A DNA stretch of 64,000 bases from positions 8,169 through 72,168 of the IMG/VR virus record IMGVR_UViG_3300024348_000023. One strand, given 5' to 3'. The translations under genes and the position numbers were made by a program. Shown here in pieces: positions 2,521-26,509 of the stretch (position 1 is the first letter of the stretch; the number at the start of each line of letters is the position of its first letter). Source of the DNA: a virus. Below the pieces are notes generated by a model. That model ran no database searches and had not been told where the DNA came from. It was given only the letters and a program-made list of their open reading frames with translations.

Positions 2521-3414
2521 ATGGCAATTAGGAACTTTGGTAAACATGGCAGGCGCAAAGTGTCTGTCCCAAACGTAACTGGATCAACCAGGTCTAATGC
2601 TCAAATAGCAATTACTTCAGCTCAATTAACATACTCAGAGTCTTCAACAAATACATCCGATATTGGTCTTTCGCAAGTAGTTCAAAGCCAAGGAGTTTCT
2701 TCAGGGTCTGTTGTTTTAATAGGAAGTAATATCCCATTTACTTATTATAACTATGTCGCACCCCCAGTCGTTCCACCAGTGGTTCCACCAGTCAACCCTC
2801 CAGTCAACCCTCCAGTTGTTCCTCCAGTAACCCCACCAGTTGCACCTACAATTAATTCAATTACAGAGTCATCAACATGTACAACTATCTCTATTAATTG
2901 GTCAGGAAGCAATGCTGCTTCATATGCTGTTACAAATTCTACAGGTTGGACTTCTCCTACATCAGGTGAAGGCGGAAATTCTGGATCTTGGACAGGAACT
3001 ATTGGTGCTTGCGGTACTACAAGAACAGCAACCCTTCGACTCTACTCTGGCCCAGGACAAACTGGACTTTCAACATCACAAGCGTTCTCTATAAGTACAA
3101 TATCTTGTGCTACCTGTTTCCCTCCAGTGGTTCCTCCAGTGGTTCCTCCAGTGGTTCCTCCAGTGGTTCCTCCAGTCAACCCTCCAGTCAACCCTCCAGT
3201 CAACCCTCCAGTCAACCCTCCAGTGGTTCCTCCAGTGGTTCCTCCAGTGGTTCCTCCAGTGGTTCCTCCAGTGGTTCCTCCAGTGGTTCCTCCAGTGGTT
3301 CCTCCAGTGGTTCCTCCAGTAACTCCAGCGGTTGATTGTTCTACAGCATCTTGCGCTAACGACCCAGGCAGAGCTTGTTGCTTCTATTTAAGAGGCGTTT
3401 GTCGTGCTTGCTAA
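2521..3414 (+). CDS. PASTA-like domain / polyproline (PPVV/PPVN) / Cys-rich C-terminus protein
   Basis: N-terminal VPNVTG.T...A...I....L...VVQSQ...GSVV..G matches the PASTA pattern. Two PPV[V/N] tracts flank a Ser/Thr-rich beta domain, and the tail has 6 Cys. Confidence 0.7.
   Translation: MAIRNFGKHGRRKVSVPNVTGSTRSNAQIAITSAQLTYSESSTNTSDIGLSQVVQSQGVSSGSVVLIGSNIPFTYYNYVAPPVVPPVVPPVNPPVNPPVVPPVTPPVAPTINSITESSTCTTISINWSGSNAASYAVTNSTGWTSPTSGEGGNSGSWTGTIGACGTTRTATLRLYSGPGQTGLSTSQAFSISTISCATCFPPVVPPVVPPVVPPVVPPVNPPVNPPVNPPVNPPVVPPVVPPVVPPVVPPVVPPVVPPVVPPVVPPVTPAVDCSTASCANDPGRACCFYLRGVCRAC
3121..3320 (+). repeat. Perfect 12-bp coding tandem repeat (16 units plus a partial unit)
   Basis: 4x CCTCCAGTGGTT, 4x CCTCCAGTCAAC, 8x CCTCCAGTGGTT, then CCTCCAGT. 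Confidence 0.95.
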
Positions 3415-3452
3415 AAAATAAGTAATTTACTATTTATTTTTTTTGTTAGATA

Positions 3453-3461
3453 TGCTATACT
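3453..3461 (+). promoter_or_regulatory. Extended -10 promoter
   Basis: TGCTATACT in an AT-rich intergenic gap, followed by SD AAGGAG and ATG at 3487. Confidence 0.6.
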
Positions 3462-3486
3462 AAATATTAAAATCAAGGAGAACATT

Positions 3487-3702
3487 ATGTCTAATAGAAA
3501 AATTGCCATGATTAATAACAATAATATTGTTACTGAAATTATAGTTTTTGATGGAACAGATATTGCTGAACAAGGTGTTATTGCTGGAATGCTTTCTGAT
3601 CCAAAGTGTTTTGAAATAGATTCAAATTCAGGAGCAACAATGGGATGGACTTATGTTAATGGAATAGCATACCCTCCACAAGAAACACTTGAGGTTATAT
3701 AG
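3487..3702 (+). CDS. Small virion-associated protein (paralogue family with 3703, 18185, 18463)
   Basis: Good SD. Pattern is a hydrophobic N-terminal strand followed by GWTYVNG..YPP. Confidence 0.7.
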   Translation: MSNRKIAMINNNNIVTEIIVFDGTDIAEQGVIAGMLSDPKCFEIDSNSGATMGWTYVNGIAYPPQETLEVI

Positions 3703-3894
3703 ATGATAAAAAAATTTATTTTAGTTGTTGATGAAGATGTTGTTACAGAAATGACTATGCCAAATGTAAATAAGTTTAGTGAGCTTATTGATACATTATC
3801 AAATAATCCAAGATTTGTTGAAATACCAATAGATTCTGAAATAGAAAAAGGCTGGGTCTGGGATGGAAATAATTTTTATCCACCACAAAATTAG
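3703..3894 (+). CDS. Small virion-associated protein, paralogue of the preceding gene
   Basis: L..NP.FVEI...S....GWVWDGNNFYPP aligns with the previous ORF. Confidence 0.7.
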   Translation: MIKKFILVVDEDVVTEMTMPNVNKFSELIDTLSNNPRFVEIPIDSEIEKGWVWDGNNFYPPQN

Positions 3895-3905
3895 ATTGGA
3901 AATTG

Positions 3906-4148
3906 ATGTCAGAAAATAAAAAATCTTTATGGCAACAGTATAAAGAAAATCTAGGAGAAACCAGACCTTGGGATTTAATTAATCCAAATTCTGAATGGGC
4001 ATCTGAAGAAGAAGCAGAAAAAAGGTATGCTATTTGTAAGGGATGTCCAGAGCTTATTCAAGCAACAAAACAGTGCAAAAAATGCGGTTGTTTTATGGCA
4101 GCAAAAACTAAATTACAAAAAGCTTTATGCCCATTAGGAAGGTGGTAA
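3906..4148 (+). CDS. DUF6171-like Cys-rich protein
   Basis: R..ICKGCP...QCKKCGCF...K......CPLGRW. Confidence 0.7.
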   Translation: MSENKKSLWQQYKENLGETRPWDLINPNSEWASEEEAEKRYAICKGCPELIQATKQCKKCGCFMAAKTKLQKALCPLGRW

Positions 4149-4149
4149 T

Positions 4150-4716
4150 ATGAAAGAATTAGCAACAGGAATTGTTTTATTTGAAAACGTATTTCCCGAA
4201 TCAATGGAGTATATAAAAAAGATAGAAGAGTCAGGCATTTCTTGGAGAGCCGCAGAGGTACTTGTAAATGAACAAGAGCATGAATCTGGAACAAATACAA
4301 AAGCTAGAGATACAGATTTAATTATGCTTCCACATCATGCTGATCAAGGATACTCCGTTCTTAATGAATTTACAAAAAGGTTTCATGAGCAGATGAAGCC
4401 ATGCTTAGATCAATACATGGCAGCCTATTACGCAAAGATAGAAAAGTTTGAAAGTCCACAATTGCTTAGGTATGGTAAAGAGCAAAAATTCCATGATCAT
4501 ATTGATGACCATCCATTTTTTACTCGTAGAATATCTTTGACTTATTATTTAAATGACGAATATGAGGGTGGAGATGTTGAGTTTAAAAGACACGGCCTTA
4601 GATTTAAAGCAAAAAAGAATGATCTTTTAATATTTCCATCAAACTTTTTATACAACCATGAAGTTCATCCAGTTGTAGATGGATTAAGATATGTGGTGGT
4701 TCAATGGATGGCATAA
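4150..4716 (+). CDS. 2OG-Fe(II) oxygenase, prolyl-4-hydroxylase-like
   Basis: LRY...FHDHID (HxD), YLNDEYEGG, IFPSN...HEV.PV..G.RY supplying the distal His and 2OG-binding Arg. Confidence 0.9.
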   Translation: MKELATGIVLFENVFPESMEYIKKIEESGISWRAAEVLVNEQEHESGTNTKARDTDLIMLPHHADQGYSVLNEFTKRFHEQMKPCLDQYMAAYYAKIEKFESPQLLRYGKEQKFHDHIDDHPFFTRRISLTYYLNDEYEGGDVEFKRHGLRFKAKKNDLLIFPSNFLYNHEVHPVVDGLRYVVVQWMA

Positions 4717-5261
4717 ATAAAGAAGTTGGATTAATTAAAAATGTTTTAAGCTCTACAGACTTTGATAGACTTTGTATGCATTTTAAAAATCATGAAGGCC
4801 TTGATATAGCCCCTACCGATGAATTTGGTAGAAAATTGGCGGGAGATAAATCAGAACCAATATTAAAAGAATTTAGTGAGCTGTTATTGCCAAAGGTACG
4901 AGAGTATTTTGGAAGTCAAACAATGCTTCCTTCATATTCTTTATTTGCAGAATATTCTGATGAGACAATCAGTCTTCATAAGCATAAAGACGCAAATGCT
5001 TGCACATACACACTTGATTTAGTTCTCTATCAAGGAGATCCCTGGGCATTGTATGTAGACGGAAAACCCTACATAGCAAAACCAAACGAAGCAATTCTAT
5101 TTATGGGTGAAGATTACGAGCATTGGAGAGAAACACTTTATAACAATACTGGCAAAATAGGTGTTGTATTTTTCCATTACGTAGAGCCAGATCATTGGTA
5201 TTTTACAAAAGGCCCAGAATACGTGAAAGAAATATGGGCACAGCGACAGACACAGAAATAA
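4704..5261 (+). CDS. 2OG-Fe(II) oxygenase family protein
   Basis: L.KHKD..AC.Y (HxD), W.L, G....HWRE and FFHYV. Confidence 0.75.
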   Translation: MDGINKEVGLIKNVLSSTDFDRLCMHFKNHEGLDIAPTDEFGRKLAGDKSEPILKEFSELLLPKVREYFGSQTMLPSYSLFAEYSDETISLHKHKDANACTYTLDLVLYQGDPWALYVDGKPYIAKPNEAILFMGEDYEHWRETLYNNTGKIGVVFFHYVEPDHWYFTKGPEYVKEIWAQRQTQK

Positions 5262-6196
5262 ATTTTCTTCATCCAGGGGTATCTTACAGTAATGTTAGAT
5301 CTTTTGACCATGAAGAAAATACCGTTTATGAGTTTGATAATGTTAGATATGCTAAAACAAATGAAGAAACAAGAATAAGAAAGCTAAAGGGAACCTATCT
5401 TCCAATAGTCCCAACACCTCATTATTTTCATTTCCTTAAAGAGTACCTAGGATCTTTTTTATATTATCGGGAGCATGTAGATCCTAACGCTAAAGTCTTA
5501 TGGATAAATCTACACTGGGAAGCTCAAGACTATCATGACACGCATGAGCCAATTCAAAAAACATTAGATCTTTTATCAGAAAAAAATATTCCAATTGTCT
5601 TTTTAAGTATAGACTCTATTTTTAATAATAATATAGAATTTGAAAAAGTAGCAGTAATTTATGACACAGCAACATTTTTTGTATCTACGGAATTTCCTTA
5701 TTTTGATCAATTTAAACATACAAATAACGAACAGGTTAGAGATTTTTTTAAAGACTTTATGTTAAAAGACACAGCCTATCCTAAAAAAGTATATGTTTCT
5801 AGAAGAAGTGTAAGTAAGTATTTAGATAACCACGATATGAAAAATCACATATCTAGATATAATGAAAAGCATGTTGAGGATGCACTAGAAGATTTTTTTG
5901 TTCAAAAGGGGTACCATGTAATAGATTTTTCAGGCATGCCAATACAAGAACAAATTATGTATATGTACAATGCCACTCATGTATCTGGCCTAATGGGTGC
6001 AAATACGTGGAATGGAATTTTCTGTGATAATGGAGTGAAACACTATTGCCTACAAACTCATATGTGGTTTAATCACGAATATGATAAAGATATTGAAAAA
6101 GTAATTGATTTTGAATACCAGCTAGTAAAAATACATAATCTTGAGTCTTATGAGTCCGTATTCAAGGATCTCTCTGATCAAATTGTTGATGCGTAA
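5234..6196 (+). CDS. Glycosyltransferase family 61 (DUF563)-like
   Basis: HYFHFL.E, KKVYVSRR, R..NE, F..MPIQEQI..MYNA..V.G..GAN..N.IF. ATG 5234 is preferred over the listed 5195 start. Confidence 0.75.
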   Translation: MGTATDTEINFLHPGVSYSNVRSFDHEENTVYEFDNVRYAKTNEETRIRKLKGTYLPIVPTPHYFHFLKEYLGSFLYYREHVDPNAKVLWINLHWEAQDYHDTHEPIQKTLDLLSEKNIPIVFLSIDSIFNNNIEFEKVAVIYDTATFFVSTEFPYFDQFKHTNNEQVRDFFKDFMLKDTAYPKKVYVSRRSVSKYLDNHDMKNHISRYNEKHVEDALEDFFVQKGYHVIDFSGMPIQEQIMYMYNATHVSGLMGANTWNGIFCDNGVKHYCLQTHMWFNHEYDKDIEKVIDFEYQLVKIHNLESYESVFKDLSDQIVDA

Positions 6197-6801
6197 GAGT
6201 ACAACTCAATATCTTTTTTATTGTATTCTTTAATAGTATCTAAAATTTCTTTGTTGCTATTTATTAGACTCAAAAAAGGATCCTCTATTGGCATAAAGGT
6301 TTGTTCATAATCTTGAGGATAATATGGAAACTCATGGGATATTTCAAGAGCAGATAGCACCTTGTTTCTAAATTTATTTTCATTGCCCTGCAAACCTTCA
6401 ACACGAAGAAGCATATTTATTCTTGAAAGGTTATTACCAATAGTTTGAGATTGATAGTTTCTAACGTGTTTGGTATCAAGCCACACTAAAAGGTTTTCTA
6501 TGGTAAGGGTTGGGCAATCTCTGTCTCTCCCCTTTCCGTGAGTTCTAACCCCATTTTCCCCATAGTTAGACCACCATACAAAATCCGAAAGGGTCCTCCA
6601 AACTGGATCCCTAACTAAACATAATATAAAAGTTTGAGAGTCAAAGTCTTTCCAGTGGTTGTGATCCGCATGGTTTTTATTTAAGCTTATTGCAGATATA
6701 CCTTTTTCTTCAATGGCCTTATATAAGCCATCAAACATCCTAACCCCTGCCGTTTTTGCAGTTATTTTGTCAAGATGTAAAAAATAAAATTGATTATACA
6801 T
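6178..6801 (-). CDS. Sulfotransferase-like protein (Sulfotransfer_2 type); the only convincing minus-strand gene
   Basis: FYFLH..K...KTAG resembles the 5'-PAPS motif but with an insertion. VRDPVWRTLS.F matches the 3'-phosphate motif, and the C-terminus has I.EYN..DIELY. Confidence 0.65.
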   Translation of the reverse strand: MYNQFYFLHLDKITAKTAGVRMFDGLYKAIEEKGISAISLNKNHADHNHWKDFDSQTFILCLVRDPVWRTLSDFVWWSNYGENGVRTHGKGRDRDCPTLTIENLLVWLDTKHVRNYQSQTIGNNLSRINMLLRVEGLQGNENKFRNKVLSALEISHEFPYYPQDYEQTFMPIEDPFLSLINSNKEILDTIKEYNKKDIELYSYASTI

Positions 6802-6807
6802 ACCCTT

Positions 6808-6833
6808 TATAGTATATCAAATGATATACTATA
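6808..6833. promoter_or_regulatory. Palindromic back-to-back extended -10 promoters
   Basis: TATAGTATATCA-AA-TGATATACTATA gives TGATATACT on both strands between the divergent genes 6801(-) and 6860(+). Confidence 0.7.
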
Positions 6834-6859
6834 GGTATCTAGACCAATAGGAGAAAACG

Positions 6860-7576
6860 ATGACAGTTAAAGTTGAAGCAAGATCAATAGTGGATTTTTT
6901 CCCACAAGAGCTTTTTGAAAAAGTTAAAGCTCAGGTTTTATCTTTAAACATGGGTCCAGGCGGACCGCATTTTTATCATCCAGTCGCTGGAAGATGGCTA
7001 ACAGAAATTAATTTTGACGATGAAACAGAGTCTGAAATACTTGAGATAGCAAAAAAGACCTTCGGAGTGGATACTATAAAAAGAGCTGGTTTCCATACTG
7101 CTAGATATCAAAAACAAAATGGAATTAAGCCACAGCTGTGGAAGCATGTAGACCAGTCAGCATGCCAATACTCTTTAGATATTTGTATTGAAAAAACAGT
7201 CGACTGGCAATTAGTAGCAGATGAAAAAACTTTTGACGAAGCTCCAAATCAATGTATAGTTTTTTGTGGTAATGATCACATGCATTATCGCCCAGAATAT
7301 CCAACTGAAGATGAAGACAAGTATGTAACTTTGTTGTTTATGCAATTTGCTGAGCCAGATCACTGGTTCTTTTCAGAAAACAGATCTGAAGGATTTGCAG
7401 AAAATAGCTGGAAAAATGATTTTAAGTTTAGAGCTAAATACGGTTACTGGGCTATGCCAGACTATAGTAACAATAGGCCCATTTGCAAATGCTGCGACTA
7501 CAGGCATGTAGCTAACTTTGAAGAAAAATATCAAAATGAAAAAGAATATTGGGACTCTCAGTACTCCAATTCTTAA
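6860..7576 (+). CDS. 2OG-Fe(II) oxygenase family protein, paralogue of 4704..5261
   Basis: LWKHVD..ACQY, W.L, G....HYRP and F.EPDHWFF; SD GGAG. Confidence 0.75.
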   Translation: MTVKVEARSIVDFFPQELFEKVKAQVLSLNMGPGGPHFYHPVAGRWLTEINFDDETESEILEIAKKTFGVDTIKRAGFHTARYQKQNGIKPQLWKHVDQSACQYSLDICIEKTVDWQLVADEKTFDEAPNQCIVFCGNDHMHYRPEYPTEDEDKYVTLLFMQFAEPDHWFFSENRSEGFAENSWKNDFKFRAKYGYWAMPDYSNNRPICKCCDYRHVANFEEKYQNEKEYWDSQYSNS

Positions 7577-7626: not shown

Positions 7627-10314
7627 ATGGCAACATCATTTCCTACCTCTAAAGACGACTTTGTAAATCCTCAATCAACGGATTCTGTACAAACGGTATC
7701 TCACGCTGCCCAGCATGCTAATGCTAATGATGCTATTGAGGCACTTGAGAATAAGGTTGGTGTTAATAATTCTACCGACCCTAATTCTTTAGATTATAAG
7801 GTAAAACAACTTGAGCTAAATTTCCTAGACGGGGAAGAGGTTCAAGATTTAGCTGCAGCACTTTTAGATCATGCTGATCACTCCAATGTAAATGTAACCT
7901 ATAACGACATAGCCAATAAGCTAATATTAACCGTTTCAAATGCCCCATCTGCTGGGTATACATCTATTGTAAAGCATACAGTAAGAGCTGGCGAAGGAAT
8001 GGTTGCGGGTACCCCAGTTTATGTAACTTCAGCAAATGGAACAAACATGATTGTTTCAAAAGCTAGCAATGCTGGAGAAGCAACATCTTCAAAAACTTTA
8101 GGACTACTCGCTCAAAATTTAAACGTAAATACAAATGGTTTTGTTATTACAGAAGGACTACTTGCAGGATTAAATACAAGTGCTGCTGCAGCAGGAGATC
8201 CAGTATGGCTTGGACCCACAGGCACACTAATCTATGGATTAACAAATAAACCAAAAGCGCCAAATCATTTAGTTTTTATAGGTATAGTAACAAGATCCAA
8301 TCAAAATAATGGTGAGATATTTGTTAGAGTACAAAATGGATTTGAGCTTGAAGAACTTCATAATGTTAACATAACTGCTCCAGCAACAGGCGAAGTTTTA
8401 ATATATAATGCAACCACAGGGCTATGGACCAATACAAATACAATTGCCTCAAAGTCATATGTGGACACAGCGATTTCTGGATTAAGCAATACAGCATCAA
8501 CAACATATGTGCCACTTTCCTTACTTGGAAATGCAGATGGAGTTGCAGAACTTGATGAAAATGGATATGTTCCGCAAGCACAGCTTAACATAGATGAAAG
8601 AATTCAAGATGTAGCTGCAAAGCTAATAACAGACGGAACTCACTATAATATATCTGTCTCATATAATGATACAAACGCAACACTAAGTTTAAGTGCAAAT
8701 TATGACGATGAAGAAGTAATGGATGCAATTGCTACGTCATTAACGGCGGGCAATGGAATAACAAAGACTTACAATGATGCTGAAAATACAATAACCCTTG
8801 CAGTAGATACTTCCGTTATAGCAGATAGAGCATATGTAAATACAGCAATATCAAACCTTATTGATGGTGCACCCGCACTTCTTGATACATTAAATGAAAT
8901 TGCAGCAGCAATTGGCGATGATTCAAATTTTGTAACAACAATAACAAATGCTCTTGCCACTAAATTAAATATAGATACTGCTGCAAGCACCTACCTGGCT
9001 ATTGCTAATGCCGACGAAATAATTCAAGACACCGTTGGCGGTATGGTATCTGGAAATACAGAACCAACAGGGCTTTCAGTTACATATGATGATCCAACTG
9101 GAAAACTTAATTTTGCAGTAACTACAGCAGACCTACCAGGCTTTACAGAAGCAGCACAAGATTCCGCTGCAAGCTTATTTACTCATTCAGGACACTCAAA
9201 TGTTACGGCAACTTATGATGATGTAGCAAATAGAATTAATCTTGCGGTAACTGCACAGTTAACTCAAGAACAAGCTCAGGACTATATTGCGCCACTTTTT
9301 ACACACGGCTTAAACCCTAATATCAGTGCTACATATGATGATCAAAACAATCGTTTAATTCTAGAAACAATTATTCCGCCATCAAAAGCAATTGTCTCAG
9401 CATTTGCTCCCTCAAACCCAGCAGATGGAGCATTCTGGTTTGATTCAGACGAATATAGAACTGGAACCACTAAAGCACTAAAGGTTTGGCAAGCATCTAC
9501 AAGCACATGGGAGTATGTTGCCTCAGATCTTTCGTTGTCAACAACAAATACATGGACTTCTAAGAACACATATACAAATGGTGTAATTATTGGATTAGAT
9601 GCCGCACCAGCATCACCAGTACACGGACAAATATATTACAATAAACCATTAAACAAACTTAAGGTTTGGGATGGCATCCTCTGGCAAGATATTCAAGGCG
9701 CTGGCGGCGGCGGAGGACTTACATTAATTCCAACAGATGATACAGCCCCACCAAGCACATTCTTTGTTGGCCTAATTGCACCACCATCAGGAGCAACTAC
9801 AACAGGTGATCTTTGGATTGATGTTGATGATATTGATACTCCATTCAATCAATTTTATACAGGCGGAGTAGCACCAGATCCAGCTCAATATGAATTTTGG
9901 GTTGATAATGTTGAACCAATTCAAGAATTAATCTATAGCGCAAATGAGCCAGGAACACCAAGTTACCCTGGAGAACTTTGGATTGACACAGATGATTATG
10001 ATGGAGCAATTGTAGAATTTGGAGCTACTCCACCAAATCCAAATAACGTTCAGCTATGGGTGGATATAAATGAAAATGAAAGCCCAAGCTATTATAAAGA
10101 TTTAACATTTACTAACTATGCAACAGTTGCAGATTTTCCATCTAATGCTCCAAATGGATATGTTGCTTCTGATGCATCAAGTGGGTTGGCATATGTAAGA
10201 AGCCAAGGTCAATGGTTGGCTATAGTAACTTCAGCAAATATAAATACGATTATTTCTTCAAACTCAACAGTATTTGAAGATTTGAAAGCCCTAACCTGGA
10301 TGGGATTTGAATAA
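7627..10314 (+). CDS. Large repetitive virion fibre/decoration protein
   Basis: Six E..QD...YnD...L.L repeats, a G.PVY...G.VITEG.L...GDPVWL beta domain, and five acidic P..P...W.D repeats. TATAAT lies 7 nt upstream of the ATG. Confidence 0.7.
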   Translation: MATSFPTSKDDFVNPQSTDSVQTVSHAAQHANANDAIEALENKVGVNNSTDPNSLDYKVKQLELNFLDGEEVQDLAAALLDHADHSNVNVTYNDIANKLILTVSNAPSAGYTSIVKHTVRAGEGMVAGTPVYVTSANGTNMIVSKASNAGEATSSKTLGLLAQNLNVNTNGFVITEGLLAGLNTSAAAAGDPVWLGPTGTLIYGLTNKPKAPNHLVFIGIVTRSNQNNGEIFVRVQNGFELEELHNVNITAPATGEVLIYNATTGLWTNTNTIASKSYVDTAISGLSNTASTTYVPLSLLGNADGVAELDENGYVPQAQLNIDERIQDVAAKLITDGTHYNISVSYNDTNATLSLSANYDDEEVMDAIATSLTAGNGITKTYNDAENTITLAVDTSVIADRAYVNTAISNLIDGAPALLDTLNEIAAAIGDDSNFVTTITNALATKLNIDTAASTYLAIANADEIIQDTVGGMVSGNTEPTGLSVTYDDPTGKLNFAVTTADLPGFTEAAQDSAASLFTHSGHSNVTATYDDVANRINLAVTAQLTQEQAQDYIAPLFTHGLNPNISATYDDQNNRLILETIIPPSKAIVSAFAPSNPADGAFWFDSDEYRTGTTKALKVWQASTSTWEYVASDLSLSTTNTWTSKNTYTNGVIIGLDAAPASPVHGQIYYNKPLNKLKVWDGILWQDIQGAGGGGGLTLIPTDDTAPPSTFFVGLIAPPSGATTTGDLWIDVDDIDTPFNQFYTGGVAPDPAQYEFWVDNVEPIQELIYSANEPGTPSYPGELWIDTDDYDGAIVEFGATPPNPNNVQLWVDINENESPSYYKDLTFTNYATVADFPSNAPNGYVASDASSGLAYVRSQGQWLAIVTSANINTIISSNSTVFEDLKALTWMGFE

Positions 10315-17189: not shown

Positions 17190-18182
17190 ATGCCATCATC
17201 ATCAACCTCGCAGTCCGTTTATTTACCAGGACTTACGACAACAATTAATACAGCTATCACTGCAGGGCTTAATGCTGGTATTACCGCAGAAGCAATTGCA
17301 GCAGGTGGAGTAAGCTCTATGTACTTGCCACTAGAAAGCAGAATTTATAACTCTGGTAACTGGACACGTCCAGCCAACTCAGGACCAGTTGTAAAGCTTA
17401 TCCTCATTGGTGGAGGCGGAGCAGGTGGATGTGGTGTTTCATGGTCACATAATGGCTCAGGTGGCGGAGGAGCTGGACAGCTTGTTGAAAGATGGTTAGA
17501 TATTTCTTCAGTAGCAATTGGAGGAACAATTCCAGTTACAATTGGTGCAGGCGGACCAGCAGTTGGTGGAAACTCTAATGGTAACAATGGAGGTAACTCT
17601 TCATTCGGTGTTAACGGAAACTCATTTTATGTAATTGCATACGGTGGCGGTGGCGGTGGCTATCCTTACGGTTCTGGCAATAACGGAAACTCTGGCTCAA
17701 TGGGTCAGGGTATGTCAAATCAAAACGGTGGAGGCTCAGGCGGAGGCGGAGGAGCTGGCGGAGATTGGCAGTACGGAGCAGCAGGCGGAGGCGGAGGCGC
17801 TGGCGGAGCAGGTGGCGCTGGAAGAAATACAACATCTAGCAACGGAACTGGATCACCAGGCTATGCTGGTGGATTTGGTTGGGGACCAGGAGCATCTGGT
17901 GGTGCTGCAGGATCAAATCACAGCTGGACATCATGGATTGGTGTCGGAGGATTTGGCGGAGAAGGAATGTACGGACTCGCAGGCGGTGGTGGCGGTGGCG
18001 GAGGAGCTGGTGGCGGAGGTTCGTGTGGCGGAGGAGCTGGTGGATCACAGACTACTGATAACTCAGGCGGAGCAGGTAGAGATGGAACAGGCTCAGGTGG
18101 CGGAGGAAATAATCACACAGGTGGTAATGGTGCAAAGGGAGGAAACGGCGTAGCTATTATTACATACTACGTTAAGGCATAA
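17190..18182 (+). CDS. Glycine-rich domain virion protein
   Basis: SG.W.RP...V...LIGGGG.GG...GGGGAG...GG.GV.II.Y. Confidence 0.8.
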   Translation: MPSSSTSQSVYLPGLTTTINTAITAGLNAGITAEAIAAGGVSSMYLPLESRIYNSGNWTRPANSGPVVKLILIGGGGAGGCGVSWSHNGSGGGGAGQLVERWLDISSVAIGGTIPVTIGAGGPAVGGNSNGNNGGNSSFGVNGNSFYVIAYGGGGGGYPYGSGNNGNSGSMGQGMSNQNGGGSGGGGGAGGDWQYGAAGGGGGAGGAGGAGRNTTSSNGTGSPGYAGGFGWGPGASGGAAGSNHSWTSWIGVGGFGGEGMYGLAGGGGGGGGAGGGGSCGGGAGGSQTTDNSGGAGRDGTGSGGGGNNHTGGNGAKGGNGVAIITYYVKA

Positions 18183-18463: not shown

Positions 18464-18708
18464 TGTCAAAGACATGGGCAATTTTAGTAGATAATGTTAT
18501 TGGAAATGTTGTAGTTGCAGACCAGGAGTTTATTGAGTCTCATCCAGATTTTTCACAGTTAGATAAAATTGATATTACTGATTATGATCCAATGCCAGGA
18601 GTAGCATGGAAATTAGAAGATAATAAATTTATTGCACCAGAGCATGTAAAGCCAAAAGCAGATCATGTTCTAGATGACGGACTTCATGAAATCGAGGTAA
18701 AAGCATAA
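18463..18708 (+). CDS. Small partner protein
   Basis: WAILVDNV..NVVVA ... P.PG.AW....KFIAP; SD GGAGG. Confidence 0.7.
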   Translation: MSKTWAILVDNVIGNVVVADQEFIESHPDFSQLDKIDITDYDPMPGVAWKLEDNKFIAPEHVKPKADHVLDDGLHEIEVKA

Positions 18709-19643
18709 TGGCAACATACGGAACAATTAATCAAATTTATGTACCAGGATTAGATACAGCAATTCAATCTGCAACAACAACTCTTTCAACATCAGTTGCT
18801 GTTCCGCTAATTGCTGCAAATCTTGCAGGGTTTTATAATGCTTATGAAGTAACAATTCTAAGCGGAGGATCATGGGTGAGACCAGTAAACAGCGCACCAA
18901 TGGTAGAAGTAACACTCGTTGGCGGTGGCGGTGGCGGAGGCTGCACAAATGGATCTGTTAATCATGGTGGCGGTGGAGCAGGACAACTTTTAAAAAGAAT
19001 TGTGAGCATTGCTTCAGTACCAGTTGGACAAGGAATTTCAATTGGAATTGCAGGAGGCGGAACTTGTAATGCACAGGGTGGAAACTCAACATTTGGAACT
19101 TCAGGACAGCCATTCTATATGGTTGCATATGGTGGAGGATCAACACAAGGTAATGGTCAATCTGGTTCATGTGGTCCAGGAGCAGATAATATTACAGGAA
19201 TTGGCTCAGGTGGCGGAGGTCAAGGAGAATGGGTAAACTCATGGGGAGCAGGCGGTGGCGGTGGCGGAGCAGGCGGTGCTGGACATCAGCCTAACGTTCA
19301 CTTTACAAGCTCAGGAGGATACTCAGGATACTTTGGTGGATCAAGAGCATCATCAGAAGGATCTTCAGGCGGTGGCCCAGGATGGGCAAACTCAAATGAT
19401 TCTGGAAGACGTGCACAAGGTGGACAAGGTGGTTCAGGACTTTATGGACTTGCTGGCGGTGGCGGAGGATCAGGAAGAGGCACAGGTGGCGGAGGATCAA
19501 ATGGCGGAGGCCAAGGTTATGGAGACTACATTGGAACACCAAGAGCAGATGCACAACCAAATACAGGTTCTGGTGGCGGTGGCGGTGGAGGAAACACTGG
19601 TGGTTCAGGAGTCTGCAAGATTACCTATTGGGTAAAAGCTTAA
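18708..19643 (+). CDS. Glycine-rich domain virion protein, paralogue of 17190
   Basis: Shares the Q.Y.PGL.T.I start, W.RP.NS.P.V and the Y.VKA end. Confidence 0.8.
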   Translation: MATYGTINQIYVPGLDTAIQSATTTLSTSVAVPLIAANLAGFYNAYEVTILSGGSWVRPVNSAPMVEVTLVGGGGGGGCTNGSVNHGGGGAGQLLKRIVSIASVPVGQGISIGIAGGGTCNAQGGNSTFGTSGQPFYMVAYGGGSTQGNGQSGSCGPGADNITGIGSGGGGQGEWVNSWGAGGGGGGAGGAGHQPNVHFTSSGGYSGYFGGSRASSEGSSGGGPGWANSNDSGRRAQGGQGGSGLYGLAGGGGGSGRGTGGGGSNGGGQGYGDYIGTPRADAQPNTGSGGGGGGGNTGGSGVCKITYWVKA

Positions 19644-21299: not shown

Positions 21300-23669
21300 A
21301 TGTCATATGCTCCAATTAGATTTGCAGGACCTTCTTTAATCCCAGCATCTCCAGCTAAAATTTACACAGCTGTATCTACAATAATCATTAAAGAATTTAC
21401 CGTAACAAATTTTAGCGGTTCAACTTTGCCGTTCAGCATATTTTTATTAGGTGAAAATGGCGATCAAGTAATTAATCTTTATGGTGTAAATAGATCTAGT
21501 TTGGATCCCTATACACTTTATGGAAATGTAAATGTACAAAATAACACAACACTTAAACTAGAACATTCATTAATTTTAAATGCTGGAGAGTCAATTGCAG
21601 CAGTTACAACAACACCAAATTGCTACTCATTAACAATATCTGGAGTTGATCTTTCAGGTACACTTTCAGGTGGAGGATCAGGCGGAGGAACAACAGGAGC
21701 ATCAGGAGCAGGTTATTCAGATATTACTTCAATAACAACAAATGCTGTAACAACAGGATCAAAAGTATTTTATGTAAATAATAGCGGGGCTTATACTGCA
21801 GGACAACGTGTGCGTGTAATTAATCCACTTGCACTAACAACTTATGTTGAGGGTACAATTACACAAGTTGTAAAAAATGTAAGTATAACTGTAGCAGTAG
21901 ATGCAAAAAATGGAACAGGTACTTATTCTGATTGGGTATTTGCTGTAACTGGAAATCCAGGAGTTAATGGCACAATTGGAGTTAATGGTGCAGCTGGCCC
22001 AACTGGTCCAACTGGAGCAGCGGGAGCAACAGGCCCAACTGGTTCTACAGGCGCAACTGGACAAGGACTGACACTTCAAAATGTTGTTGCTAACGTTGGA
22101 GCACTACCAACAACAGCACCACTTGGCGCAGCATATATAATTTCATCAACTCAAGAAATTTATATTTATAGTGGGCTTGCCTGGGTAAATGGTGGTACAT
22201 ACAAGGGGCCAACAGGTTCTACTGGGCCAACAGGTTCTACTGGGCCAACAGGATCAACAGGAGCAACTGGCGCAGCTGGAAGATCAATTAATGTTAAAGG
22301 CACAAAAGCCAATGTTGCAGCTTTACCATCTTCAGGAAATGTTTCTGGAGATTCATGGATTGTTTTAACAGACTTACACTTGTATGTTTGGGATGGAACA
22401 GCTTGGTTAGATGCTGGGCAGTTCCAGGGCCCAACAGGTGCAACTGGACCAGCAACGATATCTATTGGAACAGTTACCACTACAGGACCAACAGGCGTTG
22501 CATCTATAACAAATTCTGGTTCAGGCACAGTTGGAGTTTTTGATTTTGTTTTACCACAAGGACCAGTAGGAGCAACTGGAGCAACTGGAAATGCTGCAAC
22601 TGTCGCAATAGGAACTATAACATCTACTGGGCCAACTGGAATTCCTTCTGTTACAAATGTTGGAACACCAACAGCAGCACTTCTAGACTTTTTATTAAAA
22701 CAAGGTCCAACAGGCCCAACAGGTCCAGCAGGTCCAACAACCATAACAATTGGATCGGTAACCCCAACAGGCCCAACAGGTGTTCCAGGGATAACAAATT
22801 CAGGTACTACAACAGATCTTGTTTTAAATTTCACACTAGCACAAGGTCCAACAGGTGCAGTAGGAGCTACAGGACCTACAGGTGCAGCAAGCACAGCAGT
22901 AGGCCCAACTGGCCCAGCAGGTGTCACAGGTCCTACAGGTGCAACAGGAACAGCTGGGGCTGATGGAACATCAGTAAGAATATTAGGCACCTATGCATCA
23001 GAAGCTGCACTTAACGCAGCACGTCCAACAGGAACATTGGGTGACGGATACTTAATTACTGGACAACTTTATGTTTGGACGGGATCTGCTTGGGTAAATG
23101 TTGGAAGCATTCAAGGCCCAACAGGCTCAACAGGGCCAACAGGTGCATCTATTACAGGGCCAACAGGCCCAGCAGGCGCAACAGGTGCAACTGGCTCAAA
23201 CGGCTCTAGCATTCAGGGACCAACAGGTCCAGCAGGTGCAACGGGCCCAGCGGGACCAACAGGTGCAACAGGTGCAACTGGGTCAGGCTTACAGGGACCA
23301 ACAGGTCCTACAGGCGCAACAGGGCCTTCTGGAGGACCAACTGGCCCTACTGGAGTAAGTATTGTACAGAATTTCCAGGTAACAAATAGCGGTTCAAGCG
23401 GATATTCTGTTGATGGAACAAACAATAAAGCTTTAACATTAGTAAGAGGCCAAACATATTTCTTTACTATAAATGCTGCAGGACACCCGTTCTGGATTAA
23501 AACAACACAATCTACAGGCACAGGTAACCAGTATAATACTGGAGTAACTAATAACGGATCTGAAGTTGGTGGAATTACATTTACTGTTGACGCAACTGCC
23601 CCAAATACGTTATACTATATTTGTCAGTTCCACTCTTCAATGACAGGTGCCATAAATATAATTGGCTAA
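21300..23669 (+). CDS. Collagen-like fibre with C-terminal cupredoxin-like domain
   Basis: Many GPT/GAT tracts and LP..G..GD....LYVW.G..W modules. C-terminus has L.RGQTY.F...GHPF.I...[16 protein letters not shown]. Confidence 0.8.
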
Positions 23670-23687: not shown

Positions 23688-24749
23688 ATGAAAATAGCAG
23701 TATACACAATTGCTTTAAATGAAGAGCAATTTGTTGAGCGTTGGTACGAGTCTGCAAAATATGCTGACTGTTTATTAATTGCAGACACAGGCTCTACAGA
23801 TAAAACAAAAGAAATAGCATCAAAACTTGGTATAGAAGTTCATTCTATATCCGTGGCTCCCTGGCGATTTGATGATGCTAGAAATGCAGCACTTGCATTA
23901 ATTCCTTCAGATATAGATTACTGCATATCTTTAGATATGGATGAGATATTATCAGAAGGTTGGCGGGAAGAATTAGAAAAACTGCCATCTACAGTAACAA
24001 GACCAATACATAGGCTTGTAACATCATTTGATGAAAATGGAATTCCAGGCGTTGAGTTTGATGCATTAAGAATTCACTCAAGACATGGACATCGGTGGAA
24101 ATATCCAATTCATGAATCTGTTGCATTTTATGGCATAGATGAAGTAAGACAGGATGTGGATATTAAAATATTTCACCATCCAGATAATAATAAATCTAGA
24201 GGACAGTACTTGCCTTTGCTGCAAATGGCAGCACAAGAAGATCCAACAAGCGATAGATGTGCTCATTATTATGCAAGAGAATTGTACTACTATGCCAGGT
24301 ATGAAGATGCAGCAGCAGAATTTAAAAGACATTTATCGCTGCCTTCCGCATTCTGGAAACCAGAAAGATGTGAGTCAATGCGCTACATTGCAAAGTGTGA
24401 GCCTAACGATAGAGAGTATTGGCTTAGACTGGCTATTGCAGAGTGTCCAGAAAGAAGAGAGCCTTTTGTAGATCTTGCTCAATATTTTTATGAGCTTAAA
24501 GAGTGGGATAGAGTAAAAGAGTACTCACAGCTTGCCTTGAATATAAAAGAAAAATTCTTGGGTTATTTTTGTGAAACAGATGCTTGGGGCTGGAAGCCTC
24601 ATGATCTAATGGCTTTGGCCAACTACAATTTAGGGCTAGATGAAGAGGCATTACTTCATGGTAAAATTGCATTAGATCTTAATAATGATGATAGGCTAAA
24701 AAAGAATGTAGAATTCTACGAGCTAGCCTTGTCAAACAATGGAGAGTAA
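23688..24749 (+). CDS. GT2 glycosyltransferase with TPR C-terminus
   Basis: IA.NEE, DTGSTD.T, F..ARN.AL, LDMDE (DxD) and IHE, followed by helical TPR-like repeats. Confidence 0.9.
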   Translation: MKIAVYTIALNEEQFVERWYESAKYADCLLIADTGSTDKTKEIASKLGIEVHSISVAPWRFDDARNAALALIPSDIDYCISLDMDEILSEGWREELEKLPSTVTRPIHRLVTSFDENGIPGVEFDALRIHSRHGHRWKYPIHESVAFYGIDEVRQDVDIKIFHHPDNNKSRGQYLPLLQMAAQEDPTSDRCAHYYARELYYYARYEDAAAEFKRHLSLPSAFWKPERCESMRYIAKCEPNDREYWLRLAIAECPERREPFVDLAQYFYELKEWDRVKEYSQLALNIKEKFLGYFCETDAWGWKPHDLMALANYNLGLDEEALLHGKIALDLNNDDRLKKNVEFYELALSNNGE

Positions 24750-26509
24750 TGTCATATCGCTTAAAGGTAATAAAAGATAGCCCTATTGGTTTCTGGATGC
24801 TTGATGAATCATCAAGCAGTACAGTGGCTATGGATTATTCTGGTTGCAATAATAATGGATCGTATACAGGTTCTCCTGCAACAAACATGTTGCCTTTAGT
24901 AACAGGCGGAGGATCAGGTACAAAAATTACTAACTCAGCATATGTAACTTTTCCATTAACAAACAACTATTATACAAGCACAACAACACCTGGGATGGCA
25001 ACTAAATACTCATCCGATAACGATTTTACTATTGAATGCTGGATTAATCAATCAATTAAGTCTAGCTCAAAAACAATATTGTTTGCTGACGATACAAACA
25101 AGATTGGTCTGTATTGGGATAACGGAGATATTGTTTTTAACATTTCTCAAAATGATGAAATTAGATACCCAGTCACTTACTCAAAAAGATCAATGCATAT
25201 AGTAGGAGTTTATTCTATATCTTCATTTTCCTTATATGTTGATGCAAGGCTTGTTGCAACAAAAGCATTATCTCCAGAATTTAAATTTACAAATACATCA
25301 ATATCTTTGACATCAGGACCTACATCTAGCGCATTAGATTCTTTTGTGTTTGATGCTCCAGCAGTATATAGATATTCTTTATCTCCTCAGTCTATATTAA
25401 ATCATTACAATGCAGGAAGCGTTTCTGCCTCAGCAATACAAATTGTAGCTCCAGACGAAGGCGTACTATTTTCTGGAACAGACGCATCTATAAGAGCTCA
25501 GTTTCAATACTCCTATCCTATAAATAGAAGGTGGACTGAGTTTCTGGATGAAAATACTTATTATGATGAAAATGCAGGTTATATTTCTTTTTACAAAACA
25601 GATACCTCTACATCAAGAACTTTTGTAATTAATGATTTTCTTATGGTTCCAAGCGGTATACCTTATACAACTTCTAAGGTGGAGTGGAGAAATGATTTAA
25701 ATATTTCTGTTGAGTCCAGCGTAGATGGAACGTCCTGGTCAAATTGCACAAATGGAATGCCTCTGCCTCAGTATACAAAAGATTCGTTTAGCACAACAGG
25801 CTTAGTCTATATTAGAATAACAATGACAACACCTGATGCAAGCAAGTATCTTCCAAGGCTTGCTTATTTTGCTATTAGTTTTTATACAAACAAAGACGTA
25901 TATGCAGATAATGGGGGATACAAAATAACCTCTCCCACAGAATACTATATAGGCTCATTAAATTATCCTGTGCTTTCAAGACATTACGATAATGGAATTA
26001 GAACAAAGCCAGGGTCTGGATTTAACCTGTCCGCTTCTTCTAACGTGCATGCCATAGAAATGCTTTTTACGCCCTCTACAAGCGCCGCTAACACCCTTAT
26101 ATATATTCCCGCAAGTGGATCTGTGGCAGAAACAAAGTATGCCTGGAATGGCTCAGGAACGGTTTCTAAGGCCAATGTGCTAGAAGTATTTGTAAATGGT
26201 GTAGACAGGACGGCAGCAACAAATATAAGCTCATTCCTAGTTCCAGAAGAAATTCACCATATTGTAATTACTTTAGCTAGCCCAATAAAGGGAGATATAC
26301 AGTTTAATTATTTAGTATCTGGTGGACCAACGTGTCTATATAACAATATAGCTGTATATCCAGACGATATAACTCAGCAGATTGCAATAAACCACTACAA
26401 CCTATATATCGGAAAAATAATAACATCAGTATCCGATCCGTCCATTGTTGTAACAGAAAAGCCATTCAAGGCTTACAATAATGACTGGATAGTGTTACAA
26501 AGTATATAA
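24749..26509 (+). CDS. LamG-domain structural protein
   Basis: P.GFW.LDE...D.SG..N.G.Y, FTIECW, HIVGVY...LYVD and AVYRY.L...I..HY. Confidence 0.7.
   Translation: MSYRLKVIKDSPIGFWMLDESSSSTVAMDYSGCNNNGSYTGSPATNMLPLVTGGGSGTKITNSAYVTFPLTNNYYTSTTTPGMATKYSSDNDFTIECWINQSIKSSSKTILFADDTNKIGLYWDNGDIVFNISQNDEIRYPVTYSKRSMHIVGVYSISSFSLYVDARLVATKALSPEFKFTNTSISLTSGPTSSALDSFVFDAPAVYRYSLSPQSILNHYNAGSVSASAIQIVAPDEGVLFSGTDASIRAQFQYSYPINRRWTEFLDENTYYDENAGYISFYKTDTSTSRTFVINDFLMVPSGIPYTTSKVEWRNDLNISVESSVDGTSWSNCTNGMPLPQYTKDSFSTTGLVYIRITMTTPDASKYLPRLAYFAISFYTNKDVYADNGGYKITSPTEYYIGSLNYPVLSRHYDNGIRTKPGSGFNLSASSNVHAIEMLFTPSTSAANTLIYIPASGSVAETKYAWNGSGTVSKANVLEVFVNGVDRTAATNISSFLVPEEIHHIVITLASPIKGDIQFNYLVSGGPTCLYNNIAVYPDDITQQIAINHYNLYIGKIITSVSDPSIVVTEKPFKAYNNDWIVLQSI

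Follow-up and report, generated by a model that had tools for sequence, protein, structure and literature searches.

In plant and algal hydroxyproline-rich glycoproteins (HRGPs), which include the extensins and the arabinogalactan proteins, a polyproline-II rod is stiffened and protected by the action of prolyl 4-hydroxylases (P4Hs) and by O-glycosylation. The plant glycosyltransferases that modify hydroxyproline belong to families GT95, GT77, GT47 and GT31, not to GT61. Mimivirus L230, a collagen lysyl hydroxylase and glucosyltransferase, and animal LH3 reportedly hydroxylate a structural repeat protein and then glycosylate the new hydroxyl. In phages, Freeman and colleagues are said to have found in 2023 that mycobacteriophage glycosyltransferases act on the phages' own virion proteins, the targets being the C-termini of capsid and tail-tube proteins. 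A review passage on the chlorovirus PBCV-1 describes a P4H that hydroxylates viral Pro-Ala-Pro-Lys repeats (PMC3634087). Here we analyze a gene cassette at positions 2521-7576 of a 64,000-nucleotide stretch of viral DNA (the window; positions 8,169 to 72,168 of IMG/VR record IMGVR_UViG_3300024348_000023). In this cassette, a gene for a Pro-rich fibre appendage protein is followed by genes for three 2-oxoglutarate (2OG)-Fe(II) oxygenases, a GT61-family glycosyltransferase and a sulfotransferase.

Similar to PBCV-1 with its hydroxylase vCPH (5c5t), the locus brings together a viral P4H-clade 2OG oxygenase and Pro-rich repeat proteins encoded by the virus, which are substrates in PBCV-1 and candidate substrates here. 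The family profile of the P4H-like enzyme matches 5c5t (3e-7), and the model of the third oxygenase, OG3, aligns to it with Z 11.8 and a root-mean-square deviation (rmsd) of 2.9 Å. Several differences can be observed. PBCV-1 infects eukaryotic algae, whereas here the host is bacterial and the enzymes are adjacent to their candidate substrate in one cassette. The repeat unit here is PPV[VN], GT61 and the sulfotransferase accompany as many as three oxygenases, and the 2OG-binding residue is Arg, where collagen-type P4Hs have Lys. L230 and LH3, also matched by the P4H-like profile (8e-6 and 1e-6, respectively), share the scheme of hydroxylation followed by glycosylation. However, their target is Lys in Gly-X-Y collagen, their hydroxylase is joined in one polypeptide to a glycosyltransferase of a different family, and no sulfation is known; the Pro-rich stalk of the window contains neither Lys nor Gly-X-Y. 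HRGPs are defined by Ser-Pro(3-5) and Tyr cross-link motifs, both absent here, and are modified in the endoplasmic reticulum and Golgi, whereas the route considered here would run in the bacterial cytoplasm. The mycobacteriophage system, unlike this one, has no oxygenases or sulfotransferase and uses other glycosyltransferase families. Our search of the literature (supplements aside) on phage 2OG or prolyl hydroxylases, virion hydroxyproline or glycosylation, and phage sulfotransferases found no such cassette.

We propose that the cassette matures a virion appendage. The product of the first gene would be a tail-fibre add-on, in which rigid polyproline-II stalks composed of PPV[V/N] repeats keep a PASTA-like domain and a small Cys-rich knob at a distance from each other. 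The downstream enzymes would be produced together with this protein in the host cytoplasm and modify its stalk. The P4H-like enzyme and the paralogous oxygenases OG2 and OG3 would hydroxylate residues of the PPVx repeats using Fe(II), 2OG and O2. GT61 would then take its sugar from a nucleotide-sugar donor and attach it, most likely to a hydroxyl that OG3 has introduced, and the sulfotransferase would sulfate this sugar with 3'-phosphoadenosine-5'-phosphosulfate (PAPS) as the donor, resulting in a stiff, negatively charged, protease-resistant stalk. A DUF6171-type protein and small proteins of a WxWDG type would serve as helpers, perhaps as an accessory of an oxygenase and as a chaperone of the fibre. 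It is highly probable that the cassette as such serves the appendage; the whole chain, from hydroxylation of the stalk through glycosylation to sulfation, has in our estimate an even chance of being correct. We infer the identity of the stalk as the substrate, and likewise the residue that carries the modification, the sequence of steps, the sugar donated and the consequences for the virion.

To survey related loci, IMG/VR was queried with GT61, the stalk protein, the sulfotransferase and the OG2/OG3 family. In the OG2/OG3 search, which is blind to Pro-rich genes, 80 of 466 related stretches were kept. Open reading frames (ORFs) were classified by phmmer and local hidden Markov models (HMMs), and loci with common k-mers were merged, giving 65 clusters with the window counted as one (individual loci carry our labels, L002 and so on). 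The OG2/OG3-anchored set comprises 57 de-duplicated clusters, 52 of which contain DUF6171 followed by enzymes. In all 49 clusters with enough upstream DNA to be evaluated, the cassette is immediately preceded by a Pro-rich ORF on the same strand, and three more clusters are cut by the contig end. This ORF has a Cys-rich tail, defined as at least 4 Cys in the last 60 residues, in 43 of the 49. The exceptions among the 57 are L053 and L087, which start within the enzymes, L075, a lone OG2, L083, where the Pro-rich ORF and enzymes occur without DUF6171, and L088, where the stalk gene and DUF6171 are present and the enzymes lie 2.6 kb further on. The order of stalk gene, small ORF, DUF6171 and enzymes is kept across P4H-like sequences that are about 30-40% identical. 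An earlier note on this DNA had regarded the enzymes and their candidate substrate as one cassette, and the co-occurrence bears this out. The cassette is a genuine module that recurs across contigs and is linked to a fibre appendage bearing a polyproline stalk.

Across the 65 clusters, enzyme content follows a nested pattern. OG3, GT61 and the sulfotransferase are found together in 10 clusters, OG3 and GT61 without the sulfotransferase in 6 (one cut by the contig end), OG3 without the other two in 17 (three cut by the contig end) and none of the three in 29. GT61 occurs without OG3 or the sulfotransferase in a single cluster (L009), and the sulfotransferase without OG3 or GT61 in two, which are distant outliers at 28-29% identity. 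GT61 is accompanied by OG3 in 16/17 clusters and the sulfotransferase adjoins GT61 in 10/10. In metagenome loci with the sulfotransferase, which were not de-duplicated against the viral contigs, a convergent GT61 lies alongside in 6/6. On the OG3 tree (33 sequences) the presence of GT61 changes at least 8 times and that of the sulfotransferase at least 6 times; the association between OG3 and GT61 is therefore not one inherited block. Linkage is kept while gene order varies, with GT61 placed before or after OG3 and both strands swapped in L019.

This pattern, in which the oxygenase core may or may not be joined by OG3, GT61 is nearly confined to clusters with OG3 and the sulfotransferase accompanies GT61, fits the ordered route of hydroxylation, glycosylation and sulfation put forward in the earlier note. 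That note had the P4H-like enzyme at 4150 take the first step, which needs revision: three clusters (L003, L033 and L045) carry GT61, the sulfotransferase and OG3 and do without a P4H-like gene, so that this enzyme is not obligate for glycosylation. OG3, and not the P4H-like gene, is therefore the likely glycosylation partner. Most likely, the cassette enzymes decorate the stalk, with glycosylation depending on OG3 and sulfation depending on glycosylation.

The candidate substrate, delineated by ORF, Pfam and repeat analysis, is a fibre appendage protein of 297 aa (2521-3414, + strand). A PASTA-like N-terminal domain (about 2560-2733) is followed by a first PPV[VN] tract (2764-2842), a middle β-rich domain, a second PPV[VN] tract (3121-3320) and a C-terminal knob (about 3334-3411), all on the + strand; the final 26 residues hold 6 Cys. 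Tandem Repeats Finder reports 12-nt units, 5.4 copies at 2764-2828 and 16.7 copies at 3121-3320 (95% matching), and the encoded units are PPVV (15), PPVN (6) and PPVT (1). The PASTA match is weak in the window protein (E 0.003). It is above the Pfam cut-off in the Pro-rich proteins of L003 and L051 (2e-9 and 7e-9), whose N-terminal architecture is common to the window's. Ser and Thr are nearly absent from the window stalk and its repeats contain no Ser-Pro(3-5) motif (SPPP), so that the description "extensin-like" used in the earlier note does not apply. If GT61 acts on the stalk, it would therefore most likely use a hydroxyl made by an oxygenase.

Stalk proteins are highly diverse across the clusters. 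Their N-termini consist of a short VSPLFRNPSGIG peptide, a PASTA domain, an fn3 domain or a long fibre protein, the stalks are of (PPVV)n, (PPVT)n, (PT)n, (PV)n and (APSPAAPV)n types, and the knobs are hypervariable. In the orthologue from L004 the PASTA domain, the middle domain and the knob are kept (26/27 knob residues identical), and the repeat unit is TPPIIAV as opposed to PPVV/PPVN in the window. Five loci, L015 (1212 aa), L082, L088, L090 and L099, encode long fibre-type proteins with the stalk and knob as their C-terminus. PHROG 8780 (minor tail) matches the N-terminal parts of the long stalk proteins of L082, L088, L090 and L099, and is the same PHROG that is found in the window's fibre at 1129-2505. 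These fusions of stalk and knob onto fibre-type proteins tie the module to the virion.

Two further features of stalk proteins were observed. The contigs L004 and L005 are otherwise near-identical, and their stalk genes (L004:3477-4418 and L005:8001-8921) differ by one 7-residue TPPIIAV unit (313 vs 306 aa), a repeat-number polymorphism in natural populations. In L051:4631-6040, L059:39-2768 and L080:4224-5870 the stalk protein has a Hint/intein-like domain (C...HN) at its end in place of a Cys knob. L051 and L080 contain PASTA and a Pro-rich tract; L059 gave a Hint match only (Pfam Hom_end_hint, 3e-5). The Hint-like ending hints at self-cleavage or ligation of the stalk tip.

All genes listed in the earlier note are present where it placed them, within the virion-fibre region, and each enzyme family was confirmed by HMM, fold or both. 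The P4H-like 2OG-Fe(II) oxygenase (4150-4716, + strand), a member of the prolyl/lysyl-hydroxylase clade, matches PF13640 (2OG-FeII_Oxy_3) with 61.1 bits against a cut-off of 27 (2.2e-16). Residues H117, D119, H170 and R180, corresponding to the HxD...H motif and the basic 2OG-binding residue, are invariant in 18/18 aligned sequences; Arg is the basic residue in PHD/PLOD/PKHD types as well. Among solved structures, the family profile matches a PKHD hydroxylase (7e-11), the B. anthracis P4H (4e-10) and, besides vCPH, also P3H1, EGLN1, LH3 and L230 (6ax6). The nearest solved relatives are prolyl 4-, prolyl 3- and lysyl hydroxylases, plus PKHD/PiuC proteins of unclear substrate.

OG2 (4704-5261, + strand) overlaps the P4H-like gene by 13 nt and matches PHROG 2954 (1e-13). 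Its paralogue OG3 (6860-7576, + strand; phmmer 1e-16) is predicted to consist of a 2OG-oxygenase fold with a C-terminal helical extension. Pfam returned no family at E up to 1 for 8/8 members of the OG2/OG3 family. In an alignment of 43 sequences H96, D98 and H142 (HxD...H) are invariant, and R144 is nearly invariant at an unusual +2 position. The OG3 model, obtained with the 43-row alignment, has a predicted local distance difference test score (pLDDT) of 95.4 and a predicted template modelling score (pTM) of 0.91. Foldseek detects at least 500 matches at E <= 0.001, PHD2 among them, with the P. putida P4H as the best (2.3e-7). VIA-align gives Z 11.3-13.2 among the matches listed, and all 50 listed rows are 2OG oxygenases; the top row is a B. 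pseudomallei 2OG oxygenase (Z 13.2, rmsd 2.4 Å over 154 residues). At the level of the predicted model, the 2OG-oxygenase fold of OG3 is settled.

Comparisons by sequence are less informative for this family. A profile alignment of OG2/OG3 with the P4H-like family by hhalign is weak (E 0.006 at 6% probability) but does pair the HxD and His positions. OG2/OG3 gave no match to the PDB by sequence, and OG3 gave a single weak match to the phage collection. The ESM Atlas contains no structure of OG3 or of the sulfotransferase; its feature matches, which we treat as leads only, connect OG3 to 2OG and HalD clusters (0.90) and the sulfotransferase to viral Sulfotransfer_2 clusters (0.95). OG3 and P4H-like domains are fused in L013, L014, L015, L019, L061, L062 and L065.

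PHROGs 2954 and 3531, matched by OG2 and OG3, carry the label "ferrochelatase", and the OG3 model matches UniProt E3SI68, annotated "Ferrochelatase" of cyanophage S-SM1 (1e-10). We rejected this identity for OG2/OG3, as there is no Pfam ferrochelatase match and the fold of OG3 is that of a 2OG oxygenase. Together with the match to E3SI68, the fold indicates that the "ferrochelatase" label is wrong. Counts of phage "ferrochelatases" as auxiliary metabolic genes (AMGs) may in fact count oxygenases.

The GT61-family glycosyltransferase (5234-6196, + strand) matches PF04577 with 50.3 bits against a cut-off of 27 (3.8e-13), and the domain is present in 12/12 scanned relatives. Its ORF opens at TTG 5195; the start at ATG 5234 follows from the alignment, where the homologues begin. 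The protein gave no match to the phage collection, and a scan of 185,579 species' genomes with a pattern from the GT61 alignment returned no relative. The sole GT61 relative found outside the cassette (L009:7980-8978) is encoded by a phage with WhiB, probably actinobacterial, beside a ribonucleotide-reductase-like gene. Two P4H-like genes lie 3 kb away on the other strand.

For the sulfotransferase-like gene of the earlier note, a sulfotransferase fold was confirmed and the orientation had to be corrected: the gene is on the minus strand (6178-6801), convergent with GT61, and the 3' ends overlap by 19 nt. Sulfotransfer_2 (PF03567) scores 19.7 bits, below the cut-off of 22 (E 0.001), and a sequence search of the PDB gave a non-significant match only. 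The model (pLDDT 86.5) aligns best to the heparan-sulfate 6-O-sulfotransferase HS6ST in VIA-align (5t03; Z 10.2, rmsd 3.7 Å, 177/207 residues). Heparan-sulfate 6-O-, 3-O-, N- and 2-O-sulfotransferases are matched at Z 10.2-9.2 over 177-186/207 residues (3-OSTs Z 9.6, NDST Z 9.5), and 50/50 listed rows are sulfotransferases. The sulfotransferase fold is thereby confirmed for the predicted model. Both PAPS-motif regions align to HS6ST, and the 3'-phosphate motif RDPxxRxxS is kept, with R64 nearly invariant and S72 invariant in 25 sequences. In L092 a gene between a long Pro-rich fibre and DUF6171 (L092:5239-6033) is sulfotransferase-like by iterated HMM only, not by single-sequence phmmer; no GT61 is found there.

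PPVx repeats are present in 30/32 clusters with OG3 and in 1/23 without it (Fisher 5e-12, relatedness ignored). The link between OG3 and PPVx repeats is suggestive and is confounded by relatedness. Collagen-like fibres were also considered as the substrate and set aside: they consist of Gly-Pro-Thr/Gly-Ala-Thr triplets without Lys, and the cassette is not tracked by them, unlike the Pro-rich ORF (49/49).

Several points weigh against the proposed maturation of the stalk, in addition to those that speak for the alternatives discussed below. The proposal draws on gene context and folds. PPVV and PPVN are not known target motifs of hydroxylases. On the DUF6171 tree, four independent pairs could be used to compare OG3 with PPVx repeats; 2-3 of them change the same way and 0 the opposite way, which is underpowered (sign test p 0.25-0.5). 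The sequence and family profile of GT61 gave no solved structure in the PDB at E <= 1. Foldseek found no match for the sulfotransferase at E <= 0.001 (best 0.008), and its 5'-phosphosulfate loop is degenerate, reading DK[IV]TAKT as compared with PKTGGT, with K12 kept and the Gly-Gly lost; HIPKTGG is present only in the two most distant homologues. The slot itself is plastic, as L004 has other oxygenase- and cupin-like genes replacing GT61, the sulfotransferase and OG3.

Such plasticity leaves room for an alternative in which the oxygenase core serves the stalk, while GT61 and the sulfotransferase form an independent two-gene "moron" in a fibre-region hot spot and act elsewhere. Candidate targets would be a host envelope glycan, so that the surface of the infected cell is altered, or a different virion protein, for example the collagen-like fibres. 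We consider this unlikely. The sulfotransferase is opposite in strand and has its own strong promoter-like site (6820-6793, 11/12 consensus positions), its nearest folds act on polysaccharides, and two further glycosyltransferases are encoded at other places on this contig. GT61 and the sulfotransferase always move together, their gains and losses on the OG3 tree are as frequent as given above, and their position relative to OG3 varies. Nevertheless, 16/17 GT61 clusters are located inside the cassette with OG3, across GT61 lineages that are 28-33% identical to the window's, and such a requirement for OG3 is unexpected for insertion into a hot spot. Divergent lineages occupy the same slot: in L013-L015, GT61 lies between DUF6171 and the OG3~P4H fusion, and in the window it overlaps the preceding OG2 gene by 28 nt. 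On the side of the independent moron, L009, representing four near-identical contigs, carries GT61 without the cassette, and the fusion partners of GT61 relatives are sugar-metabolism domains (NTP_transferase, GT2 and NAD_binding_3), none of them oxygenases.

It is also conceivable, if improbable, that the oxygenases are AMGs that draw down 2OG, repair DNA or RNA or hydroxylate free amino acids or other small molecules, and that they lie beside fibre genes as this is where non-essential genes accumulate. Phage 2OG oxygenases are treated in this way in the passages concerned of two reports. Sullivan et al. 2010 propose roles in DNA repair or in 2OG/NtcA for those of cyanophages, and their gene list includes entries of 531-732 nt termed "hypothetical with ferrochelatase domain" (PMC3037559); a 2024 time-series study counts 2OG oxygenase and "ferrochelatase" genes that co-occur in pelagiphage-related contigs among potential AMGs (PMC11561400). 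The "ferrochelatase" label in these pairs is the one carried by the PHROGs of OG2/OG3 (2954 and 3531). In the same passages no substrate is given and no Pro-rich neighbour is mentioned, whereas here the pair sits in a fibre-appendage cassette. The fold of OG3 is nearly tied in VIA-align between HalA, HalB, HalD and BesD (Z 12.5-12.9), so that the best listed rows include free-lysine/ornithine enzymes, and prolyl hydroxylases including vCPH (Z 11.5-11.9). For this reason a small-molecule substrate is kept in play: judging from the likeness of its model to hydroxylases and halogenases of free amino acids, OG3 may act on a small molecule. The P4H-like profile, by comparison, matches protein prolyl and lysyl hydroxylases best. 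The AMG explanation is further at odds with the same-strand Pro-rich ORF directly before 49/49 evaluable cassettes, with the gene order kept among divergent P4H-like sequences, and with the fusion of the stalk to fibre proteins in several contigs.

Isolated phages provide a contrasting set. In seven regions with DUF6171 or distant PF13640 homologues, a Pro-rich ORF was found within 4-6 kb in 0/7. The association with Pro-rich genes thus holds for the oxygenase-anchored clusters (49/49) and breaks down for the distant homologues, and our reading is therefore limited to the cassette of DUF6171, P4H-like and OG2/OG3 genes and does not extend to every phage 2OG oxygenase. The PF13640 homologues of S-MbCM7, S-RIM2 and S-T4 are located amid DNA-metabolism and capsid genes, as the AMG explanation would have it. 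In Stenotrophomonas phage Moby, DUF6171 lies amid small unknown genes, and in Sf-FS3 it is followed by P4H and sugar-nucleotide genes. In Synechococcus phage S-SRM01 (L103:1390-4336) a DUF6171 homologue comes after a gene annotated as gp37-gp38 adhesin tip complex. A flavin-dependent halogenase precedes this adhesin tip gene, placing a different candidate tailoring enzyme at a fibre tip.

In Synechococcus phage S-SCSM2R (L112:4275-7838) the gene for a 427-aa 2OG oxygenase is followed by three glycosyltransferase genes, one of them annotated as family 25. A radical SAM gene, another glycosyltransferase and another oxygenase are found further on, forming an oxygenase-glycosyltransferase island in an isolated cyanophage. 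According to the proteome data excerpted from the report on this phage, a 2OG oxygenase was detected in its purified virions (PMC12801897). The case is a suggestive precedent for stalk maturation by cassette enzymes.

Finally, the enzymes could tailor or fold the Cys-rich knob or another folded domain, in a manner resembling either EGF domains or ribosomally synthesized and post-translationally modified peptides (RiPPs), with the Pro-rich tract as a mere spacer. This is again improbable. The GT61 family includes EOGT, which glycosylates EGF domains, and OG2 faintly matches a model of LpxO, of the Asp/Asn-hydroxylase type (E 0.004). The DUF6171 protein is rich in Cys, as are the tails of 43/49 stalk proteins; the 6/49 clusters without such a tail, however, keep DUF6171 and the oxygenases, and three of them (L051, L059 and L080) have the Hint-like ending. 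A near-identical knob is present in the window with the full enzyme set, in L004 without OG3, GT61 and the sulfotransferase, and in L045 without the P4H-like gene. The same holds for a second knob type (TTYYW.CC...): L002 and L033 combine it with GT61 and the sulfotransferase, L035 combines it with GT61 but no sulfotransferase, and L043 and L055 have neither enzyme. Both the sequence and the Cys number of the knobs are hypervariable, in contrast to the conserved enzymes. RiPP-like tailoring of the Cys-rich peptide, which the earlier note had offered as an alternative, is disfavoured because the same knob is found with different enzyme sets, and we rejected a RiPP precursor or leaderless RiPP, since a 297-aa multi-domain protein is not a leader-core peptide. 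The overall interpretation of that note is partly supported.

Three small genes separate the stalk gene from the enzymes, all on the + strand. Small protein 1 (3487-3702, 71 aa) has a C-terminal GW.Y.NG..YPP motif, matches PHROG 14370 (1.2e-6) and has homologues in the same position in L004-L007 and L045; it is possibly a fibre-assembly helper. Small protein 2 (3703-3894, 63 aa) has homologues between the stalk gene and DUF6171 in L014, L029, L034, L038, L071, L080 and L089. The two had been described as paralogues, and a similarity is present, but it is weak (phmmer cross-hit E about 9e-4). The DUF6171-type protein (3903-4148) contains six Cys in the arrangement CxxC...CxxCxC...CP and a final W, and was assigned by Pfam and PHROG. 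It scores slightly below the cut-off of DUF6171 (PF19668, 25.7 bits vs 27) and matches PHROG 13558 at 1.8e-15. The six Cys are invariant in 16/16 aligned homologues, and the gene is located directly 5' of the first enzyme.

The window is part of a 72,168-base linear viral contig, with an estimated completeness of about 64%. The contig encodes a portal, a head protease, a 2181-aa tape-measure protein, a DnaB-type helicase, a primase and a large DNA polymerase, and by gene content looks like a long-tailed phage. Several virion proteins are closest to those of marine Synechococcus phages (34-38% identity), and a nucleotide search with the cassette gave no match in the phage collection. The cassette slot (2521-7576) is located inside a run of fibre genes, and in L004, too, fibre genes bound it on both sides. 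Upstream are a collagen-like fibre (2-1129) and a tail-fibre gene of the Mtd_N/minor tail type (1129-2505, + strand; Pfam Mtd_N 6.6e-9, PHROG 8780 at residues 362-456), whose C-terminal module is fused to the Pro-rich stalk in other contigs. The slot ends at a tail fibre of 895 aa (7627-10314, + strand; PHROGs 2631 and 454, tail fiber), the orthologue of which sits after the variable enzyme set in L004. A second collagen-like protein is encoded downstream of the cassette. Gene junctions within the cassette overlap or abut (4148/4150, 4716/4704, 5261/5234 and 6196/6178), and a promoter and terminator scan gave counts not above those of shuffled sequence.

Elsewhere in the same phage (21300-26509), a fibre may be paired with a glycosyltransferase for a second time: the gene for a collagen-like tail fibre (21300-23669) is followed by those for a GT2-family glycosyltransferase (23688-24749) and for a lectin-like Laminin_G_3 protein (24749-26509). 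A third glycosyltransferase (L113:1957-2958, PHROG 2170, 2e-64) is encoded in the contig part upstream of the window, where it adjoins ribonucleotide reductase, outside the fibre region. Two neighbouring genes for Gly_rich_2-domain proteins (17190-18182 and 18708-19643) coincide with the G+C peak of the window (0.43-0.44 vs about 0.38 elsewhere).

The cassette gives phage oxygenases, which appear in the excerpted literature since at least 2010 without a known substrate, a defined candidate substrate next door. A "ferrochelatase" family with a 2OG-oxygenase fold would correct a widespread annotation. We suggest, tentatively and with considerable doubt, that aquatic tailed phages run a eukaryote-like three-step route in the bacterial cytoplasm that yields a sulfated proteoglycan-like rod on a tail-fibre appendage, and that at least the "2OG-Fe(II) oxygenase" and "ferrochelatase" genes of such cassettes encode virion-maturation enzymes and are not AMGs. 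If true, hydroxylation and sulfation would each be described for a phage virion protein for the first time, as far as the literature searched shows. Viruses that infect bacteria would then build extensin- or proteoglycan-like rods without a secretory pathway, which would bear on the protease resistance and the adhesion tuning of phage receptor-binding appendages in water.

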